DNA of 23,294 nucleotides from an uncultured archaeon (lineage in GTDB: Archaea > Asgardarchaeota > Lokiarchaeia > Sigyniarchaeales > SOKP01). Location of the stretch: positions 1-23,294 of the forward strand of contig CAZWEM010000058.1 of the NCBI GenBank assembly GCA_964632315.1, given 5' to 3'. Positions 3,544-14,312 of the stretch are shown here, one piece after another (positions within the stretch are counted from its first letter, which is position 1; each line of letters opens with the position of its first letter). The notes beneath the pieces were generated by a model. It saw nothing but the letters and a program-made list of their open reading frames with translations. It did no database searches and was not told where the DNA came from. Made by a program: the position numbers and the translations under genes.

Positions 3544-4878
3544 CTAAGAGCTAATTTGATAAAAGCTTTCTTGAAACTCTGGTTTATTTTTGTATCGTTC
3601 CATGAATAATAAGGGAGCTTTTTCAAGATTTTTGAATAAATATGATGGTGCTTTAATACCAGCTTCTTTTAATGCATTTTGGATATTTTCGACAGTTGGT
3701 GGGCAACCCTTTATTGCGATCAGTTGATTTATGTTCGGATGATCTTTGTTCTTGTTGTATTGGCATTGTCCGAGTAAAATTGTTTTGTTCGCATCTGGAG
3801 AAGGTTCCATGATTTTTCCAGTCAATACTTCGATATTATCAAATGGTTCGCCCTTCCAGGCAGACTTAATTGCGGTCAATATAACCCCGTTATAAAAACT
3901 ACAAAAAGTGCACATAGTTTCATCGTATCTTCTATATCTTATACCCTTAATCCCCGCTTTAGCATATGATAAGGGTAACGTATTGTTATTTTTGTAAATA
4001 AATTCCCATCCATGTGGACTTGCTAAACTTTCAATAGTTTCCCCCTTGATTTCTATGTCAGACAAATCAATTGGTCGATTGCGGTCCTTAGCAGCTTGGA
4101 CTAAATGTGGTACGGCTTTAGGATCAATGTCTAAAAGACTAGACCCAACGAGATCAGCAGAAAGTATATCCTTTGATGCCACTAGGATGTTGCTTCGATG
4201 AGCTTTTCCATCGAAGGTTGGGCCTCTCTCTAGGGTATAAATGCCATCAATCAAAGTGAAAGTAGGAGGTACCTTATTAGCCAGTTGAGATACGTTATAA
4301 TGCAAAGTATATTTAGGATCATCTCCATGGAATTTCTTTCGAGAGGCAATATTGATGAGCCCTTTAATGTTTTTCATGCCTAAACTTACTACGCATTGAG
4401 CATGTGTCTTTAGTACAGGAAGATCAATTAAGAAATCCGAATGCAGCATATCCGCATTCATCTTTGCAGTCAATCCTTCAGTTAACTCAACCTTCTCAAA
4501 AGGTCGAGCGAACGTATCGTATATTTCAACTCCGTATTTTTCCTTTAGTACATTGTATCCTAAATATTCAAATGCATCTTTTGGTGTTTCTCTATCTTTT
4601 GGATCATCAGTAATTATTCCTTCACCAATGATCATATTACGTGCACCAAGCTCATGGAGATATTTTACGACTTCTTCCACCACTCGGGTAGTTGTGAGCA
4701 TTCCCCATTTAGGAAAGTCGCAATGTCGATTCCAATATACCAGATTTGGCTTGATAAAGATTTTTCCATCCATAGGAATATCTTCAAAACCGTTAACTAA
4801 ATCTATAGCTTTTCTTACTGATTCTTTTGGTTGATCATACTTTACTATTGATACTAATCTCTTTTCCATATTTATCAA
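3544..4878 (-). CDS. DUF362-domain protein with C-terminal Cys-rich (putative Fe-S) region
   Basis: IFIKPNLV, LPVLKTH, SLGMKN, LIDGI and DLV motifs of DUF362; C-terminal CTFC, GQC and KGCPP. The true start may be the ATG at 4869. Confidence 0.8.
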   Translation of the reverse strand: MINMEKRLVSIVKYDQPKESVRKAIDLVNGFEDIPMDGKIFIKPNLVYWNRHCDFPKWGMLTTTRVVEEVVKYLHELGARNMIIGEGIITDDPKDRETPKDAFEYLGYNVLKEKYGVEIYDTFARPFEKVELTEGLTAKMNADMLHSDFLIDLPVLKTHAQCVVSLGMKNIKGLINIASRKKFHGDDPKYTLHYNVSQLANKVPPTFTLIDGIYTLERGPTFDGKAHRSNILVASKDILSADLVGSSLLDIDPKAVPHLVQAAKDRNRPIDLSDIEIKGETIESLASPHGWEFIYKNNNTLPLSYAKAGIKGIRYRRYDETMCTFCSFYNGVILTAIKSAWKGEPFDNIEVLTGKIMEPSPDANKTILLGQCQYNKNKDHPNINQLIAIKGCPPTVENIQNALKEAGIKAPSYLFKNLEKAPLLFMERYKNKPEFQESFYQISS

Positions 4879-4999: not shown

Positions 5000-5554
5000 T
5001 TAAGATTTTTTCTCGTCATGAATTTTTTTCCATTCTTGCTGTAAAATAGCCATAATGAGAGTATCGTGATAATCCCCGTTAATAAAGACCGCTTGCCTTT
5101 TTGCGCCTTCTCTTGTAAATCCTAATTTCTCATAGCATCGTATTCCTCTCTGATTAAAATCATATACCAAGAGTTCAATTCTGTTTAGATTTAAGGTTTT
5201 AAAACTATAATCCAAGAGAAGTTCCAATGCTTCAGTTCCATAACCTTTTCCCCAATAATCTTTCTCACCGATCATTATTCCACACACACCAACCCGATCC
5301 TTCCAGTTAACTTGATGGATTCCACAATTTCCTATTAAAAGTTCTTTTTCATTCTCTTCTGAAATCACGATAGCAAAAAGAAAATCATTTTCCCTTTTAG
5401 GAAGATTTTCATACCACGCTTCCTCCATTTCTATGGTCATTGGGCGGAACATTACTAAATATTGAGTGATTTCAAGGTCATTTATCCACTTTATATAAGA
5501 TTCTATGTACTCTTTCTTTGTTGGTACTAATTTGATTCTTTCTCCTATTAACAT
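5000..5554 (-). CDS. GNAT N-acetyltransferase, RimJ/RimL (SpeG-like) family
   Basis: GIMIGEKDYWGKGYGTEA acetyl-CoA motif A, LNLNRIEL, and NQRGIRCYEKLGF..EG. Confidence 0.9.
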   Translation of the reverse strand: MLIGERIKLVPTKKEYIESYIKWINDLEITQYLVMFRPMTIEMEEAWYENLPKRENDFLFAIVISEENEKELLIGNCGIHQVNWKDRVGVCGIMIGEKDYWGKGYGTEALELLLDYSFKTLNLNRIELLVYDFNQRGIRCYEKLGFTREGAKRQAVFINGDYHDTLIMAILQQEWKKIHDEKKS

Positions 5555-5638: not shown

Positions 5639-8545
5639 TTAAAAGAATATTTTCGACCTTCTAGCTAAATACTTGACAATCTCGAAAGATATGATGCAAA
5701 TCAATGAAATAAGAAAGCAAACTAACCAATCTAGAGCAGTCAAGTACATGAACATAAAATTAATACCCCAAGAAGCAAGAGTTACTTGAAATCCAGGAAT
5801 GTACATTATAGCTAAAAATACAAAAAACAATAATCCGATGAGGATATACATGAATTTAGTGGAATCTTCCCTTATACTTCTTACAAGAGATTTATTAGGT
5901 CTTCTAATTTGAAAGACTAAAAATGATTCACAGAAATAGAGCGTAACCATCAACATTGTCAATGTTTTTGCAGTTGTGAGGTTTACACCAGGAGAATACA
6001 ATCCAATTGTTTCGGGAGAATAAAGATAACCACCATTAAAAGCACCAAAATTATAATTTTGGGGGAATAATGGATATGCTCCCGTGATTGTGGTAAAATA
6101 AACGACCAGCATACTAATAGATAATAGTATGCCAAATATCGCTAATAATATAAACGTATTTTTACTCAAGATCTCTTCTTCATCTCGCGGTTTATGCTTC
6201 ATCACATCCCTAGAGGTAGTGTCAAAAGTTAGTACCAGTCCAGGGAACATGTGAAGAGTAATTGATAAGAAGACCCACTGTAAGTAAAATGCCTGATCTA
6301 AAAAGTAAGGATGTTCCAAAATAACTGCTAAGATGAATTGGACTATGCCCTCGAATACATTTATGCATATATAAAAAAATACTACTGCCCTTATCCTGGC
6401 AAAAATACCTCTTCCTTGTTCTATACCTTTAACAATTGAGTTGAAAGAATCATCACTGATGACCATATCGGAAGCCTCCTTGGCAACGTCTGTACCTTGG
6501 ATCCCCATCGCAATGCCTGCATCAGCCATATTTAAGGCTAAAGCGTCATTCACACCATCTCCGGTCATCGCAACAACCTTATCAGCATCTTGATATCTTT
6601 CTACGATGTCTTGCTTGTGTTCGGGAGATACCCGAGCGAAGACTTTAACTCGGCTAAAATCATAGAAGGAGTTTATGTCTTTAATATCCTTACCTTCCAT
6701 GACGAGATCACTATTAGTATCATTTATAATAGAGATTTGTTTCGCTATTGCAGAAGCAGTTACTTTACTATCTCCAGTAATCATGACAACATTTACCCCT
6801 GCAGCATGGCACTCTTCTACGCTTTCCTTAACCCCTTCACGTGGCGGATCTAAAATCGTGACAAATCCGATATAAATCATTTCAGATTCCAACAATTCTC
6901 TTCCAGAATCCTCTTCATCTTCGGGAGGAATTGTATCCAATTTTTTATAGCAGAGGCAAAGAACTCTATACCCTTGGCTAGCATAATGCTGTTCTTCTTT
7001 AGATATCCTTTCTTTTAAATCAGTAGTAAATTCTACCTCTTTATTTTCGTATAAAACCTTGGTACATAATGGCATGAGAATTTCACTCGCTCCCTTAGTG
7101 AAAGAGTAATATTTTCCTTCCCGCTTGTAGATTTTAGTCATTCTTTTCAACTTGGAATCAAATGGATATTCTCTTATATACTCGAAATCCTCAAGCATGT
7201 AGTCTCCCATTCCTTTTTGGAAGAGTACCATGAGAGCACCCTCTGTTGGACTTCCTATTACAGTGTAATTATTTATTGTTTTACCAGAAATTTCTAATTC
7301 ATTTTTTACTAAAGCAGAGTTATTATTTAGAAATCCGGAAATTAATAAGAGTTTTAATTGGGAGTGTTCATCAATATGTTTTACATATCGGGGATTCTTT
7401 TCATCCATTTTAATAATTTCCCCCTCAGGATTATATCCTACTCCAGTTACTTTGTATGTACTACCATTTGTCCAAATATTTTGAATGCACATTTGATTCT
7501 TCGTTAAAGTTCCTGTTTTATCGCTACATACAACACTAACCCTACCCAAACTATCTACTGAAGCTAAATTACGAATAATTACGCCTTTATGAGCCATTGC
7601 AACAACCCCAGTCAAAAGAATAATTGTTACTAATAATGGGATGTTAATCGGAAGCAGATCAAGAGCAGCATTTAGACTTCCTACGATCTCAATTCTTAAG
7701 AATCCACTCGCAATCCATTTTATGAATAAAATAAGCAACCAAAAAGCTATGACAATTATACCAAGCCACTTTCCAAAATTATTCATTTTTTCACGGATGG
7801 GAATTTCTGAGGTTCCTGCTTCCTCAAGACCTTGAGATATTTTTCCTATTTCAGTATTTTTCCCAACTTTTACAGTTAAAGCTGTACCATTACCAGTCGT
7901 AATATAGGTACCGTAAAAAACCATATTATTTCTCTCAGCTATGGGAATTTCCTTTTCTGATAAAAATTTGCCTTGATTCAACTTTCTAACTGGTTCTGCT
8001 TCACCTGTGAGAGAAGCTTCATTAACCTCTAAATTAGAAGCTTGTATGATACGTGCATCAGCGGGAATTCGGTCACCTTGCTTTAATACGAGTAGATCTC
8101 CAACAACTACCTCTTTTGTGGGAATTTCTAGCTTACTTCCGTTACGAATAACTGTTGTAGTTGGTGCTGTCATTTCTCTCAGAGCATTTAATTTTTTTGT
8201 TGCTCTATATTGTTGAACAACGGCTACTACAGCATTGAGGAGAACTATGCCCAAGGTTAACATAATAAAGGTCAAATTCCCTTCTCCACCAAAAATAGCT
8301 GCCAAAAATAAGATTAAAGCACCAATTAAATAAATTACAATCAACCAATTGAATAAGGGGGCTAAATAAATCTTAATGAACCCTTTTGAGGCTTTCGGGA
8401 TTTCATTGTATCCATAAAGCTGAATTCTTTTTTGAGCCTCTTCCCGAGTCAAACCATTAGTAGGATTTGATTGGAATTTGTCATAAATTTGATCTAAATT
8501 TAGAGAATAATATCGTTCTTCTATCAAAAAAATCTCCCGCGACAA
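5639..8545 (-). CDS. P-type ATPase, P2-like scaffold with atypical transport site (copy 1)
   Basis: GDRIPADARI, SLTGEA, CSDKTGTLTKNQM, KGASE, DPPR, MITGD, ARVSPEHK, TGDGVND; ~10 TM. M4 reads LPINIP and M6 reads ITLHMFP. Confidence 0.95.
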   Translation of the reverse strand: MSREIFLIEERYYSLNLDQIYDKFQSNPTNGLTREEAQKRIQLYGYNEIPKASKGFIKIYLAPLFNWLIVIYLIGALILFLAAIFGGEGNLTFIMLTLGIVLLNAVVAVVQQYRATKKLNALREMTAPTTTVIRNGSKLEIPTKEVVVGDLLVLKQGDRIPADARIIQASNLEVNEASLTGEAEPVRKLNQGKFLSEKEIPIAERNNMVFYGTYITTGNGTALTVKVGKNTEIGKISQGLEEAGTSEIPIREKMNNFGKWLGIIVIAFWLLILFIKWIASGFLRIEIVGSLNAALDLLPINIPLLVTIILLTGVVAMAHKGVIIRNLASVDSLGRVSVVCSDKTGTLTKNQMCIQNIWTNGSTYKVTGVGYNPEGEIIKMDEKNPRYVKHIDEHSQLKLLLISGFLNNNSALVKNELEISGKTINNYTVIGSPTEGALMVLFQKGMGDYMLEDFEYIREYPFDSKLKRMTKIYKREGKYYSFTKGASEILMPLCTKVLYENKEVEFTTDLKERISKEEQHYASQGYRVLCLCYKKLDTIPPEDEEDSGRELLESEMIYIGFVTILDPPREGVKESVEECHAAGVNVVMITGDSKVTASAIAKQISIINDTNSDLVMEGKDIKDINSFYDFSRVKVFARVSPEHKQDIVERYQDADKVVAMTGDGVNDALALNMADAGIAMGIQGTDVAKEASDMVISDDSFNSIVKGIEQGRGIFARIRAVVFFYICINVFEGIVQFILAVILEHPYFLDQAFYLQWVFLSITLHMFPGLVLTFDTTSRDVMKHKPRDEEEILSKNTFILLAIFGILLSISMLVVYFTTITGAYPLFPQNYNFGAFNGGYLYSPETIGLYSPGVNLTTAKTLTMLMVTLYFCESFLVFQIRRPNKSLVRSIREDSTKFMYILIGLLFFVFLAIMYIPGFQVTLASWGINFMFMYLTALDWLVCFLISLICIISFEIVKYLARRSKIFF

Positions 8546-8739
8546 TTATTATTGATAATAAATCAATTAATTCTAATATATAATAGCTAAAACAATACTT
8601 ATTTTTATTTTATTACTTTTTTGATATGATTCTTAGGAAGATTGACAAGTATCATTCTTTCTTTACGTTAAATTGTGAAAAAATTATAATATTTAAAACA
8701 AAATGTAGAAATTTAAAAATCTATCATTTCTTTCTTGAA

Positions 8740-11607
8740 TTAAAATTTTATTTTCTTCCTTCTTGCAGCATATTTGAATATTTCTATACCTACAATACCT
8801 ATCGAAGATAAGGCTATACAAATTAACCAATCGGATCCACTTAGAAATAAAAAGTTGATTTGTAAGCCTAAACCCCAAACATCATTCACGTAAAAATTAA
8901 CAGGTTGAGAAAAATTGATGTATAGGATATGAATTGTTAATGTGCCTATTGTAATTAAGAAGAGTGAAAGGTTGAATTCTCCCCTAATTGATTGTATAAT
9001 TGATTTATTTGGTCTTCTAAAACCCCATATAAAAGTAGTCTCAGAGATATATATCGTAGTTACTAACATTGTTCTGGCTTTCTGGGCAATGAGGTCCGAT
9101 CCTGAAGGAAGATAGCTCAACATTGGATTGAGGTTTGCAGCATTCAATGGAATTAACCCAGCTAGAGTTAATTGAAGTGCCAAAGCAACTCCGATTCCGA
9201 TAAGAATTGCATTAATAACCAACATTATCCACATGGGTTTATTTAAAAGTTGCTGTTCATCACGAGGTCTTTCTAGCATGACATCCTTAGGATGCGAATC
9301 AATGACCAATGCTATTGAAGGAAGCGAATGTACAATGCCGTAGATATATATATGTTGCCATTCAGAAGAGAATAAAGTAAATGTAGGAACAAATTCATAT
9401 CCGAAAAAAATAGCAGCTTCCATTATGTTTAAACAGATAAAAAAATAGATAATGTTTCTTATCTTAGCAAAAAGGCCTCTTCCGATTTTAACTCCTTTTT
9501 CTATCGATGTAAAATCGTCGTCAGAAATTACTAAATCTGCTACTTCCTTACTTACATCAGTTCCAGTTATTCCCATCGAAATTCCAGCGTCCGCTAATTT
9601 TAATGCAAGTGCATCGTTGACTCCATCTCCAGTCATAGCCACAACATGCTTCTTTGCGCCATCTTGTCCTTGATATCTTCTTACAATGATTTCTTTATCT
9701 TTAGGAGCCACTCTTGCGAAAACACTCACTTTATCGAAATCTTCATCAGATAGGGTTTGAATTTCTGATCCTTCAACTACTAAATCTCCTTTTTTATAAA
9801 TTCTACTTTGAGCTGCAATGGTTTTAGCTGTTTTAGGATGATCTCCCGTAATCATTGCCACTTTTATTCCTCCAGATTCACATTCTAATACTGATTCTTG
9901 AACACCCGGCCTTATAGGGTCTAAAATTGATAGAAATCCTAAAAATAAAAATCCTGTTTCCGCAGATTCTCTGGTTAGACCCTCAAGGTCAGGAATCATT
10001 TTATAAGCTACAGCTAAGGTTCGATAACCCTGATTTGCCCTTTTATTTATTTTATCAAAAATTTCTTGTTTGAATTGGGATATCTCGCTAACACTACCAT
10101 CAATCTCTATTTTAGAGGATTCAGATAAAATTTTTTCAGGAGCACCTTTAGAAAATACGAAGAATTTGTCATCTTGGCTAACTTCTTGACAAACTGTTGT
10201 CATTTGCTTAACTGACGAATCAAAAGAGTATTCTTCAATTAATTTATAATTCTTTTTAATATCATAAGGGAAATAACCTGCTTTCTCAGCCAACACCAAT
10301 AATGAGGCTTCTGTAGGAGAACCAACAGCTTTCCTTATTGCCTTTTCCTTTTGATCGCGAAAATGAACCTTTACATCTTCATAAACTAATCTTGCGTTAT
10401 TATTTACCACAGCGGAATTGATAAAATGAAGAAAGGTTGAATTGTCAGTTAAATTTACATTTTCAGAGTTTAAAGTAATTGATCCATCAGCTTCATAACC
10501 TGCACCTGAGACATCATATTCCACGTTATTTAACCAGAATTTATCCACTGACATTTCATTCTTAGTAATAGTACCCGTTTTGTCAGAACATATCACTGAA
10601 ACACGTCCGAGAGATTCTATAGCCGCCAAGTTCTTAACGATTACACCACTCTGAGCCATATTTAGCACACCAGTTACAAGCACCAAAGTAGATAGTAGAG
10701 GTAAATTGATCGGCATAACATTCGTGGCACGCAACAAGGAATCAGTTAAAGCTACATTTACGAAATGCCCGTACAGTTTTCCCTCAAACGCGAGAATTGA
10801 GAGTTTATAGGTTATTAGTATTATTAGAATCACTATAAGTAAAGCAGCTAAAATATAACCAAGTCGATTTAATTTTTTGGTTAGTGGAATATCTTCTATA
10901 GTGCCCATTTCATTTAATTGGTCAGATATTTTACCTATTTCTGTATTGATTCCAGTTCCATAAACTACCACTTTCCCCCTTCCCGTACTAACATAAGTTC
11001 CCATAAAAACAATATTAGATTGCCGTTGTAAGGGAAGGTTAAGTTCATTTAAAGTATTGATTTCTTTTTGCACTGCTTGAGATTCCCCCGTGAGTGTCGC
11101 TTCATTAACAGTCAAGTTAAAAGCATCTATTATTCTACCATCAGCAGGAATCTTGTCACCTTGTTCGAGTATAATAATATCCCCTGGAAGAACGTCTCTA
11201 TTAGGAATCTCTAATTGCCTACCATCTCTTAGCACCGTTGCTTTCAAAGCAGCAATCTCATATAATGCTTCAAGAGCTTTTTGAGCCCTAAATTGTTGAA
11301 TAATCACAGTAATAGAATTTGCACCGACAATAATAAATGTAAAGGTCGCTGCACTATAATCTCCTAAAATTATTACAAATATTCCAATAAAGATAAGAAT
11401 AATAATTAAAATGTTAAAAATTGGAGCAAGATAGATCTTCCACAGAGATTTTTTAACTTTAGGTAGTTCATTATATCCATAAAGAGAATATTTTCCCTCT
11501 AATTGTGATGATTTTAATCCAATATTTTCATCCACGTTAAACTCTTTTAGTATTTCTTTGACAGATCGTGAATAAAATCCGTTCTCTGATTTGATTGAGT
11601 TAGCCAT
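8740..11607 (-). CDS. P-type ATPase, P2-like scaffold with atypical transport site (copy 2)
   Basis: GDKIPADGRI, TLTGES, CSDKTGTITKNEM, KGAPE, DPIR, MITGD, ARVAPKDK, TGDGVND. M4 reads MPINLP and M6 reads GIVHSLP. Confidence 0.95.
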   Translation of the reverse strand: MANSIKSENGFYSRSVKEILKEFNVDENIGLKSSQLEGKYSLYGYNELPKVKKSLWKIYLAPIFNILIIILIFIGIFVIILGDYSAATFTFIIVGANSITVIIQQFRAQKALEALYEIAALKATVLRDGRQLEIPNRDVLPGDIIILEQGDKIPADGRIIDAFNLTVNEATLTGESQAVQKEINTLNELNLPLQRQSNIVFMGTYVSTGRGKVVVYGTGINTEIGKISDQLNEMGTIEDIPLTKKLNRLGYILAALLIVILIILITYKLSILAFEGKLYGHFVNVALTDSLLRATNVMPINLPLLSTLVLVTGVLNMAQSGVIVKNLAAIESLGRVSVICSDKTGTITKNEMSVDKFWLNNVEYDVSGAGYEADGSITLNSENVNLTDNSTFLHFINSAVVNNNARLVYEDVKVHFRDQKEKAIRKAVGSPTEASLLVLAEKAGYFPYDIKKNYKLIEEYSFDSSVKQMTTVCQEVSQDDKFFVFSKGAPEKILSESSKIEIDGSVSEISQFKQEIFDKINKRANQGYRTLAVAYKMIPDLEGLTRESAETGFLFLGFLSILDPIRPGVQESVLECESGGIKVAMITGDHPKTAKTIAAQSRIYKKGDLVVEGSEIQTLSDEDFDKVSVFARVAPKDKEIIVRRYQGQDGAKKHVVAMTGDGVNDALALKLADAGISMGITGTDVSKEVADLVISDDDFTSIEKGVKIGRGLFAKIRNIIYFFICLNIMEAAIFFGYEFVPTFTLFSSEWQHIYIYGIVHSLPSIALVIDSHPKDVMLERPRDEQQLLNKPMWIMLVINAILIGIGVALALQLTLAGLIPLNAANLNPMLSYLPSGSDLIAQKARTMLVTTIYISETTFIWGFRRPNKSIIQSIRGEFNLSLFLITIGTLTIHILYINFSQPVNFYVNDVWGLGLQINFLFLSGSDWLICIALSSIGIVGIEIFKYAARRKKIKF

Positions 11608-11690: not shown

Positions 11691-12659
11691 TCAGACTTTT
11701 AATTCTGTGGGATCTCCCAACAAGTCTTTAAGGATGTGAAATTTCTTCCGTATTGTTGTACTTGAAAATCTGCTTGTTTTTTCAACCAGACTTTGGGTAA
11801 ATATTTTAGGATTTTCCAATGTTTGTCCAATATAATAGATTAAACCTGCTGTAAATGCCTTATAATTTAAATTTTGTAAGTATCTATAGGGAATGCTTGT
11901 TAGTATTCGATCCGCAATTAACTGCATATCGATTTTTAACTTGTTAAATTCTTCTTGATCAGCGATATATTCTTTCAATTCTTCAAATGGGATATTATTC
12001 ATATCTTTTTGAAAAAGGATTTTAATTTTCTTTTTAATTTCTCGTTCTAGTTGTGAAATTGATAGCGTTTGTTTATCATCGAGATTAGTTTCGGTTCTCG
12101 TTATTTTTTCCATTGCATTATTTAACATTTTTTTGTTTATTTTGTGCCCTAATTCTCGAGAAGTCTTAATAAATTCTTCAACCCGTATATTTGTGGTATC
12201 TTTAATTTCCATCCATACGATAGCTAAGAAAATAATAATCATATTCTGGTAAGTTTGGCGATGATATTTGTTATACCGAAGATATCTCTTCTTTATATGT
12301 TGATATTTAACGTTATCAATATTTAAACCAATTTCATACGATTTTAGTAAATCTATAGTTTTTTTCTGCTCAGAAAAATTAGTATGATAATCTCTAAACC
12401 ACTTGTCCAAGGTTTTTAACTTTTCATACTTCTGTTTGATTTTTGGATTCTGAGTTGCTCTTGAATCGCCTACTCTTATCTTTCTTTCATACGCTTGTTG
12501 AGAATCTGAATAAAAAGAAGCACTTGAACTGGTCTCAAACTCTAATCCTTCATCAACAATTAGCCCACAATCCTTACACACAATATAAGGGCCATCTTGC
12601 ATTAAGTTTTGATGCGTGCAAATGGGAGTTTCCGAATTATTCTTTTCATTCTCACTCAA
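11691..12659 (-). CDS. Divergent TFB/TFIIB-like protein (Zn ribbon plus cyclin-like repeats)
   Basis: N-terminal CTH...VCKDCGLIV Zn ribbon. C-terminal KAFTAGLIYY...TQSLVEKTSRFSSTTIRKK resembles TFB repeat 2 and its HTH. Repeat 1 is degenerate. Confidence 0.7.
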   Translation of the reverse strand: MSENEKNNSETPICTHQNLMQDGPYIVCKDCGLIVDEGLEFETSSSASFYSDSQQAYERKIRVGDSRATQNPKIKQKYEKLKTLDKWFRDYHTNFSEQKKTIDLLKSYEIGLNIDNVKYQHIKKRYLRYNKYHRQTYQNMIIIFLAIVWMEIKDTTNIRVEEFIKTSRELGHKINKKMLNNAMEKITRTETNLDDKQTLSISQLEREIKKKIKILFQKDMNNIPFEELKEYIADQEEFNKLKIDMQLIADRILTSIPYRYLQNLNYKAFTAGLIYYIGQTLENPKIFTQSLVEKTSRFSSTTIRKKFHILKDLLGDPTELKV

Positions 12660-13382: not shown

Positions 13383-14312
13383 TTAAGATAAAATATTTTT
13401 TATTTGTTTTGCCCTTGAGCGCAATGTGACCTCGGTGATTTTTGCTACGTCTGCAACATTAGACTGTGTCTTTCGCACACTTCCATCTTTTGCAGCGATA
13501 TAAATGCAAGCAGCAGCTAATCCTTTAGGATCCTTTCCAGTTCTTTTTAACCCATGTTTTGAAGCCTTACGAAGCATGTCTATAGCAACTCTTTGAATTT
13601 TCATAGGTAACTCAAGTTCATTACCAAAACGGAAAACTAATGATTCGGCAGTTATTGGTTGATATCTTAACCCCAACTGAGGTAAAACTTCTCGAATGAT
13701 CATTGCTAAACTTCTATGTACTGTTCTACGTGGAGTCATAGAAGCTTCGCACACTTCATCGAGTAAACGAGGAAAGTCATGAACCCTTATAGCAGCATAT
13801 AAAGATCCTGCGATAAATCCATTAATGGATCGTCCCATTGTAAGTTTCTTTTTTGCTACAATGCTATAAATTTTCCAAGCTGTCTCACTTATGTATTCGG
13901 GAATATTTAATTTAGATGTGAGCATTTTTAACTTGGGTTTGGCTTCCCAAAAATTTCGCTCAATACTTGAAATTAATGAATTTTGTATTTTAGATAATCT
14001 TGAGAATAAAGCTTGTTCTTTTGGTCCAATACTCTTCCCTTTTGAATCCGTTTTTGTCGTTGGTAACATAGTACGCGGCCCAAAATCCCGCCATCTAGGT
14101 TCAGTTCGTCTCCTAGTTTGTATTTCTTCGATCGTATATGCCCGTCGCTCATTTCCAACGTAAGTTCTTTCAGATATTAGTCCACAATTCAAACATACTT
14201 TGTTACCGTCCCTTTCTTCAATGCAAGGGTTGTCACAGCACTCTGCGGCATAACGGGTGTTTTCTTGATCTATGTTCTTACTTTTAATGAGTTCTCTGTA
14301 AGGATTGTTCAT
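13383..14312 (-). CDS. tfb: Transcription initiation factor IIB (TFB)
   Basis: Zn ribbon CC...VCLNCGLI, B-reader-like ERRAY, ERN, repeat 1 GRSINGFIAGSLYAAIR, repeat 2 GKDPKGLAAACIYIAA, and TQSNVADVAKITEVTLRSR HTH. Confidence 0.92.
   Translation of the reverse strand: MNNPYRELIKSKNIDQENTRYAAECCDNPCIEERDGNKVCLNCGLISERTYVGNERRAYTIEEIQTRRRTEPRWRDFGPRTMLPTTKTDSKGKSIGPKEQALFSRLSKIQNSLISSIERNFWEAKPKLKMLTSKLNIPEYISETAWKIYSIVAKKKLTMGRSINGFIAGSLYAAIRVHDFPRLLDEVCEASMTPRRTVHRSLAMIIREVLPQLGLRYQPITAESLVFRFGNELELPMKIQRVAIDMLRKASKHGLKRTGKDPKGLAAACIYIAAKDGSVRKTQSNVADVAKITEVTLRSRAKQIKNILS

Follow-up and report, generated by a model that had tools for sequence, protein, structure and literature searches.

Tandem genes P0001 and P0002, located at positions 5639–11607 of a 23,294-nt stretch of Asgard archaeal DNA (contig CAZWEM010000058.1; the whole stretch is termed the window), encode P-type ATPases, and the evidence supports their assignment to a distinct, selected P-type subfamily that is an offshoot of the P2 (Ca2+ pump-like) ATPases. 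The subfamily, designated the PIN clade, is defined by a Pro-hydrophobic-Asn-x-(Pro/Val/Ile) motif in transmembrane helix 4 (M4), a His three residues ahead of the Pro in M6, a QQxR motif in M2, retention of the M5 N..E pair and the M8 Glu, and monophyly. P0001 and P0002 carry every one of these features and fall inside a clade with a Shimodaira–Hasegawa-like approximate likelihood ratio test (SH-aLRT) support of 99. Both genes probably encode active pumps of an old, Asgard-centered P2 offshoot whose substrate would be a small cation other than Ca2+ held at a rebuilt single site.

P0001 and P0002 are intact P2-type ATPases

P0001 (5639–8545, minus strand) encodes the 968-residue A-type member of the pair and P0002 (8740–11607, minus strand) encodes the 955-residue B-type member. 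Open reading frame (ORF) calling and translation showed that both ORFs are open, full length and co-oriented on the minus strand. The TTG start of P0001 is uncertain, and its close homologs have ~962 residues compared to 968. The genes are separated by an AT-rich spacer of 194 nt (8546–8739) that lacks a VTT/DedA gene, whereas the same place in some other Asgard genomes holds one. The two proteins share 40% identity along their full length and have the same Pfam domain set (Cation_ATPase_N, E1-E2_ATPase, Cation_ATPase, Hydrolase and Cation_ATPase_C). The N- and C-terminal cation ATPase domains, 10 transmembrane helices and a structure resembling that of SERCA, SPCA and Na,K-ATPase identify a P2-type architecture.

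The translations of both pumps contain the P-type superfamily elements DKTGT (7508–7522 in P0001 and 10570–10584 in P0002, both on the minus strand), a TGE loop in the actuator (A) domain, TGD and GDGxND, which reads GDGVND in each protein. A DNA pattern spanning M4 to DKTGT has two matches in the window compared to zero expected from shuffling. The first-pass annotation of this DNA described both pumps as catalytically intact with a TGE(S/A) loop, and translation bears out the intact ORFs and motifs. Both forms of the loop are present: P0002 has TGES, which is found in 115/122 close homologs, and the TGEA of P0001 (7997–8008, minus strand) is confined to this protein and its two closest relatives.

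The Ca2+ site is rebuilt in both pumps

Ca2+ binding by SERCA needs E309, N796, T799 and D800. Equivalent residues were assigned with HMMER against human SPCA1 and with MAFFT against dozens of ordinary PEGLP pumps, which gave a gap-free register anchored on the M6 Pro. Conservation was counted in 118 near-full-length PIN clade members and is reported in P0001 numbering. M4 reads PINIP in P0001 (7637–7651, minus strand) and PINLP in P0002 (10699–10713, minus strand) in place of PEGLP, as the first-pass annotation had it. The P299-I-N-I-P303 segment of P0001 aligns with P308-E-G-L-P312, which puts Ile at the position of the gating E309 and Asn at the position of G310. The E309 column is hydrophobic in 118/118 members (95 Ile, 9 Leu, 6 Val, 6 Phe and 2 Trp), P299 is invariant (118/118) and N301 is nearly so (115/118). 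An Asn three residues before the M4 Pro, also claimed from the first inspection, occurs in P0002 (TNVMP); P0001 has Asp at this position and the column varies across the clade.

M6 has lost its N796, T799 and D800 ligands. The N796, T799 and D800 positions are occupied by S761, L764 and H765 in P0001 and by Tyr, Val and His in P0002. H765 (codon 6251–6253, minus strand) aligns in HMMER with SPCA1 D742, the D800 equivalent, and its P0002 counterpart is H760 (codon 9328–9330, minus strand). HMMER and MAFFT agree that the His lies three residues ahead of the M6 Pro, which confirms the Asp-to-His replacement proposed earlier. H765 and P768 are each conserved in 117/118 sequences, and the columns equivalent to N796 and T799 vary freely.

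The M5 and M8 residues are retained, also as first described. The equivalents of SERCA N768 and E771 are N729 and E732 in P0001 (6350–6361, minus strand; Asn in 112/118 and Glu in 118/118) and N727 and E730 in P0002 (9418–9429, minus strand). The E908 equivalent in M8 is E873 in P0001 (5927–5929, minus strand; Glu in 109/118) and E856 in P0002 (9040–9042, minus strand). Q756 is conserved in 118/118 members. The M2 helix ends in Q-Q-x-R in the PIN clade as opposed to Q-E-x-K in PEGLP pumps; in P0001 the altered pair is Q111-Q112 (8210–8215, minus strand; Q111 in 118/118 and Q112 in 110/118). M1 contains A-P-L-F-N in place of the x-Q-F-x-D of PEGLP pumps. Through the M1 and M2 replacements, the cytoplasmic entry has lost its surrounding acidic residues as well. 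The conserved His at the D800 position and these clade-wide traits uphold the earlier proposal of a distinct subfamily in which site II is abolished.

The PIN clade is monophyletic, old and under selection

A maximum likelihood tree of 66 rows was composed of the paralogs of this genome and database representatives only and was rooted on the pumps of this genome that have a CPC motif. The PIN clade is monophyletic in this tree (SH-aLRT 99) and lies within the P2-like pumps, which split from the P3A-like pumps at SH-aLRT 98. Two separate deep subclades, one with 18 rows and the other with 4, contain P0001 and P0002, which implies an old A/B duplication. A profile-free exhaustive search of 1.84 billion representatives retrieved ~33 clusters (50% identity level) whose M4 motif is P-(I/V/L/F/W)-N-(I/L/F)-(P/V/I); beyond ~520 bits, the matches turn abruptly into PEGLP sequences with ..NLVTDGLP. 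A look-up of the clusters yielded taxon names for two representatives only, Odin and Hel. The dN/dS ratios (nonsynonymous to synonymous substitution rates) against orthologs were ≤0.11 wherever dS was unsaturated. Decay of the PIN clade pumps is excluded because the site residues are conserved over 118 sequences and dN/dS is ≤0.11, in agreement with the prior view that selection accounts for the changes.

The PIN clade is centered on Asgard archaea

The close homologs of P0001 and P0002 (70–92% identity) all come from Asgard metagenome-assembled genomes and are annotated as ‘cation-translocating P-type ATPase’ or ‘Ca2+-transporting ATPase’. A pattern search run on one genome per prokaryotic species, a type of check suggested by the first-pass annotation, found at least 120 loci. 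Those listed are nearly all archaeal and mostly Asgard, consistent with the placement of the DNA in an Asgard genome. Named Asgard lineages (Loki/Promethearchaeota, Thor, Hod, Heimdall, Hermod, Odin, Sigyn, Borr and Atabey) account for at least 94 of the 120 loci listed, and the carriers include the cultured MK-D1 and Lokiarchaeum ossiferum. The others listed are 20 archaea without a lineage label, 5 TACK archaea and 1 ‘Aerophobetes’ bin. The M4 PxNxP motif and the M6 His occur together in every listed locus where M6 was recovered.

A scan of Asgard-phylum genomes found the PIN pattern in 270/400 genomes, 66/90 high-quality genomes, 57/85 genera and 122/134 genomes of the family to which the window belongs. 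The reversed-pattern control gave zero matches. The usual copy number was two, on one strand, and some families have none. On these data the PIN clade is almost entirely Asgard, with a few TACK genomes. At least 14 of the loci retrieved repeat the tandem order seen here, a B-type gene followed by an A-type gene, and the paralogs that are kept adjacent in many genomes presumably differ in specificity or regulation. The sole bacterial-labeled match listed, ‘Candidatus Aerophobetes bacterium Ae_b3b’ (L037, NJBP01000013.1), has a Lokiarchaeia-like A+B pair, and the contig is probably mis-binned as opposed to representing gene transfer.

PIN clade pumps resemble P2 pumps and lack P4 traits

Curated NCBIfam models were used to compare P0001 and P0002 with known P-type families. 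The generic P-type model TIGR01494 (HAD-IC) was the only one passed (290 bits for P0001 and 248 bits for P0002, cut-off 62.3). The best specific models for P0001 were PMR1 (TIGR01522; 472 bits, and 420 bits for P0002, cut-off 798) followed by SERCA (TIGR01116; 424 bits, and 411 bits for P0002, cut-off 703), and both cut-offs were missed. Three ordinary PEGLP controls scored 658–777 bits; P0159 alone passes the SERCA-type cut-off (713/703) and none reaches the PMR1 cut-off. All of the equivalog cut-offs were missed by P0001 and P0002, so the earlier warning that a ‘Ca2+-ATPase’ label is unsafe is justified.

The P3A model TIGR01647 gave 345 and 316 bits (cut-off 615.5). Scores with the P5 model TIGR01657 were 246 and 223 bits (cut-off 618), compared to 244–275 bits for the PEGLP controls, and the M4 sequence is PIN(I/L)P and not the PP(E/A)LP of P5 pumps. 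The P4 model TIGR01652 gave 115 bits for P0001 and 95 bits for P0002 (cut-off 431); basal members of the clade scored 89–113 bits and the three ordinary PEGLP pumps 96–110 bits. The P4 and P5 scores are no higher than those of the PEGLP controls and thus reveal no excess affinity to either of these eukaryote-only subfamilies.

P4 flippases are recognized by DGET in the A domain, N-x-x-(I/L)-P-I-S-L in M4, a Lys in M5 and the Cdc50 β subunit. DGET is absent from P0001 (TGEA) and P0002 (TGES), and the M5 Lys is absent from both pumps, where M5 has N..E; these two absences had been recorded at the outset. The PhoLip_ATPase_N and PhoLip_ATPase_C Pfam domains were not found in either pump, and Cdc50 (PF03381) had no match in the 99.5% complete genome of this organism or in prokaryotic control genomes, as expected for any prokaryote. 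The P4 M4 motif shares only P-I with the two pumps, and the Asn at position −3 is found in P0002 only. In comparison with ATP8A1, Drs2 and Neo1, the common feature is the Ile right after the M4 Pro. The first-pass annotation regarded this Ile, combined with the Asn three residues before the Pro, as the P4 hallmark; the hydrophobic residue is not diagnostic because the genome's four P3A-like pumps, which read IPVALP, also have one at the E309 position.

The AlphaFold2 model of P0001 has a mean predicted local distance difference test score of 87, a predicted template modeling score of 0.82 and an M4 helix that is unwound at the Pro. The top 50 Foldseek matches of this model are all P2 pumps (SERCA, SPCA1, H,K-ATPase, Na,K-ATPase and LMCA1; TM scores 0.57–0.78) and contain no P4 or P5 structures. 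An ESM Atlas feature search returned only clusters of cation P-type ATPases. Descent from P4 or P5 pumps is rejected on the comparison of profile scores with those of the controls, on the motifs and on the Foldseek matches, and a position intermediate between P2 and P4, as first suggested, is not supported.

The best solved relatives by sequence are SPCA1, LMCA1 and SERCA. The P2A pumps (human SPCA1 8iwp/7yag, Listeria LMCA1 6zhf/9euq and SERCA1/2) match with E ~1e-118 and TM scores up to 0.78, and they share with the PIN clade the domain architecture, 10-helix fold, catalytic motifs, and the site-I M5 N..E and M8 Glu. The PIN clade differs from P2A in the change of PEGLP to P-I-N-(I/L)-P, the change of N..TD to x..xH in M6, the neutralized acidic residues of M1 and M2, scores far under the equivalog cut-offs and its separate SH-aLRT 99 group.

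A rebuilt single site is proposed to bind a small cation other than Ca2+

The analysis establishes that the two genes are intact, that they belong to the clade and that P4 traits are absent, along with the conservation of the residues and the taxonomic range; the proposed mechanism builds on these points. The motor of P0001 and P0002 is the standard one, with phosphorylation at DKTGT, dephosphorylation by TGE(S/A), and nucleotide-binding (N), phosphorylation (P) and A domains mounted on 10 transmembrane helices. Ca2+ site II is erased by the replacement of E309 with Ile and the release of the N796 and T799 positions to vary, and the cytoplasmic entry is neutralized by the M1 (xQFxD to APLFN) and M2 (QE to QQ) changes. 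One central pocket would then be left, formed by the M5 Asn and Glu, the M8 Glu, the new M4 Asn (G310 position) and the M6 His (D800 position). By homology to SERCA, we infer that these five conserved residues line the central cavity, and the Glu-Glu-Asn-Asn-His pocket would hold one small cation other than Ca2+. The Ca2+ site is rebuilt around a His, and therefore some other small ion is probably pumped.

The likelihood of a cation other than Ca2+ divides roughly evenly between two options. The His may act as a ligand, in which case a Glu2-His-Asn2 sphere would fit Mn2+, Fe2+, Co2+, Ni2+ or Zn2+, and a transition metal is a plausible though tentative candidate. The His could otherwise be titratable or provide an intrinsic counter-charge, with H+ or a monovalent ion as the substrate, which is conceivable and likewise tentative. 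P3A pumps (plant AHA2 and fungal Pma1) have a single central titratable residue in M6. The P3A residue is an Asp accompanied by an M5 Arg and there is no M5/M8 Glu pair, whereas PIN clade pumps have an M6 His and no M5 Arg; the two groups share the hydrophobic residue at the E309 position seen in the IPVALP pumps of this genome, and they separate in the tree at SH-aLRT 98. A functional precedent for the M6 His is the transport-helix His of the P1B-4 Co2+/Zn2+/Fe2+ pumps (e.g., sCoaT), described as an internal counter-ion (PMC10654040). The P1B pumps have another topology and SPC or CPC in M4, and the PIN clade sits well away from the CPC pumps of this genome in the tree. The A- and B-type paralogs stem from an ancient duplication. 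Because the genome also has PEGLP, PEGLV/I, P3A-like and CPC pumps, the export of Ca2+, H+ and Cu/Zn does not have to depend on P0001 and P0002.

Several points weigh against a small cation at a rebuilt site. The geometry proposed for the site derives from homology to SERCA. His-rich tracts are absent from the 118 members, CxxC occurs in only four of them and there are no metal-binding extensions. A neutral entry funnel would be unexpected for a divalent-cation pump. The neighboring genes in the window (GNAT, DUF362 and a 322-residue protein) give no clue to the ion, and the VTT/DedA genes beside PIN clade pumps in 9/120 listed loci keep a lipid role in consideration.

Alternative substrates are less probable

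Continued transport of Ca2+, or of Ca2+ and Mn2+, through a site-I-like pocket alone would make the automatic annotation broadly right. The best profile and structure matches (PMR1, SPCA1, LMCA1 and SERCA) and the retained site-I ligands N768, E771 and E908 are consistent with this idea, but E309, N796 and D800 are all replaced here, the scores fall 40–45% under the curated cut-offs, and the genome already has PEGLP-type pumps. To our knowledge, the characterized single-site Ca2+ pumps (SPCA, PMCA and LMCA1) all retain a site II that includes the M4 Glu and M6 Asn/Asp. Ca2+ is an unlikely substrate on this evidence. Export of an organic cation such as a polyamine, by analogy to P5B pumps, receives less weight and is distinctly improbable. 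The functional M4 residue of P5 pumps is at the G310 position of P-P-x-L-P (PPELP/PPALP), the same register as the new polar Asn of the PIN clade, and a GNAT acetyltransferase gene lies directly downstream of P0001 in an arrangement conserved in 18 loci. The P5 scores of P0001 and P0002 (223–246 bits) do not exceed those of ordinary P2 pumps (244–275 bits), however, both pumps lack the additional N-terminal helices seen in P5 pumps, and the GNAT synteny was possibly inherited among related Lokiarchaeia. The loss of the canonical ligands and the TGEA of P0001 would also be compatible with decaying or non-transporting ATPase relics. This explanation is contradicted by the conservation data and is extremely improbable: both ORFs are intact and preserve every catalytic motif, the substituted residues hardly vary among 118 sequences that span all major Asgard lineages, dN/dS lies well under 1, and 270/400 Asgard-phylum genomes carry the clade.

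A lipid or amphipathic substrate, such as an archaeal phospholipid or a polyprenyl phosphate, would make the PIN clade convergent with P4 flippases, maybe acting with proteins of the VTT/DedA scramblase family. The Ile at the E309 ‘gate’ position and the neutralized acidic entry funnel fit such a substrate, and VTT-domain genes lie between or beside clade ATPases in the nine loci, next to three ATPase subclades. The eukaryotic VTT protein VMP1 binds SERCA (as cited in 10.1101/2020.12.18.423352). The two buried Glu (118/118 and 109/118) and the His point instead to a small, charged ligand. The P4 profile does not score these pumps above ordinary P2 pumps; neither DGET, the M5 Lys, the PhoLip domains nor Cdc50 was found; no P4 or P5 structure is in the top 50 matches; and the P3A-like proton pumps of the genome are also hydrophobic at the E309 position. 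The window has no VTT gene, and a VTT gene of this genome lies near a CPC P1B pump instead. Lipid transport is judged unlikely. A more general proposal, that the PIN clade is a prokaryotic P-type pump whose substrate is not a metal but membrane-embedded or bulky, and that it works with VTT/DedA proteins, is a long shot; if true, it would represent an Asgard counterpart of the eukaryotic VMP1–SERCA partnership, and P-type transport of large substrates would have been invented independently. The preferred substrate class is a small cation other than Ca2+.

Significance of the PIN clade

The PIN clade is not described in the literature searched, which covered Asgard P-type ATPases, archaeal P2A subfamilies, functionally uncharacterized P-type ATPases and flippases. 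In a survey of Asgard transporters, the P2 pumps are entered just as orthologs to a putative Ca2+-ATPase (PMC7997004), and a recent review of P-type ATPases assigns P4 and P5 to eukaryotes only and makes no mention of such an archaeal group (PMC10654040). The PIN clade is apparently an undescribed, large, P2-derived subfamily with new site chemistry. P-type subfamilies are sorted by transport-site chemistry, and new site chemistries are rare. PIN clade pumps are widespread in the archaea closest to eukaryotes, including cultured strains, and are routinely labeled Ca2+-ATPase, a label that has fed statements on Ca2+ signaling in Asgard archaea. Knowledge of the real substrate would correct these annotations, add a Glu-Glu-Asn-Asn-His site type to the mechanisms of P-type pumps and reveal an ion or metal homeostasis task special to Asgard cells. 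The clade currently has no bearing on the origin of the eukaryotic P4 or P5 pumps.

Neighboring genes and other P-type pumps of the genome

A 322-residue ORF with an N-terminal CxxC...CxxC arrangement that is Zn-ribbon-like (11691–12659, minus strand) lies upstream of the B-type gene at a distance of 83 nt and is conserved beside B-type pumps in 25 loci with ~67% identity. The ORF has no Pfam match, and its similarity to the adjacent bona fide transcription factor B (TFB) gene (13383–14312) was not significant by BLAST (E 0.06), so that a TFB-like nature is at most putative. Downstream of the A-type pump are the GNAT acetyltransferase (5000–5554, minus strand) and a DUF362 protein (3544–4878, minus strand), whose genes recur next to the A-type gene in 18 loci (GNAT) and 16 loci (DUF362). 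This adjacency could reflect inherited synteny or a functional link.

No VTT/DedA gene is present in the window. The nine listed loci with a PF09335 gene beside or between PIN clade ATPases fall into three sets. The VTT gene is co-oriented in the order B-ATPase/VTT/A-ATPase at L072:4363–5178, L102:2163–2984, L131:3959–4774 and L054:818–1672, an order found in some Hod- and Lokiarchaeial genomes. It adjoins the PFNFP subclade at L015:5647–6771 and L094:1393–2454, and further cases are L080:1–786, L087:3413–4348 and L110:6437–7321. VTT proteins are described as lipid scramblases in eukaryotes, with VMP1 a binding partner of SERCA (10.1101/2020.12.18.423352). The adjacency recalls this partnership and is a lead, not evidence of lipid transport. 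The genome of this organism has three VTT genes, one of which follows a CPC-type P1B ATPase gene at a distance of ~1.4 kb on its downstream side (G000:C4:114673–118595), so the closeness of VTT genes to P-type pumps is not restricted to the PIN clade in this genome.

The genome encodes 11 P-type ATPases in all, including PEGLP, PEGLV/I, P3A-like and CPC types; the assembly is 99.5% complete and 8.6% contaminated, so paralog counts per genome are to be taken with care. Two of the four P3A-like IPVALP pumps are in tandem on C14. An 810-residue PEGLP pump that is partly masked (X/N) is encoded at G000:C80:4469–6898 (plus strand) and has WINMTTAV in M6 with no Asp at the D800 position. A second tandem P2-type pair of 953 and 950 residues lies at G000:C8:107889–113737 (plus strand) and has PEGLI/PEGLV in M4, N-F-D-E in M5 and NIATDG in M6. 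None of the public runs listed for the window sequence is an RNA run, and the DNA runs that contain it are salt-marsh and marsh metagenomes.

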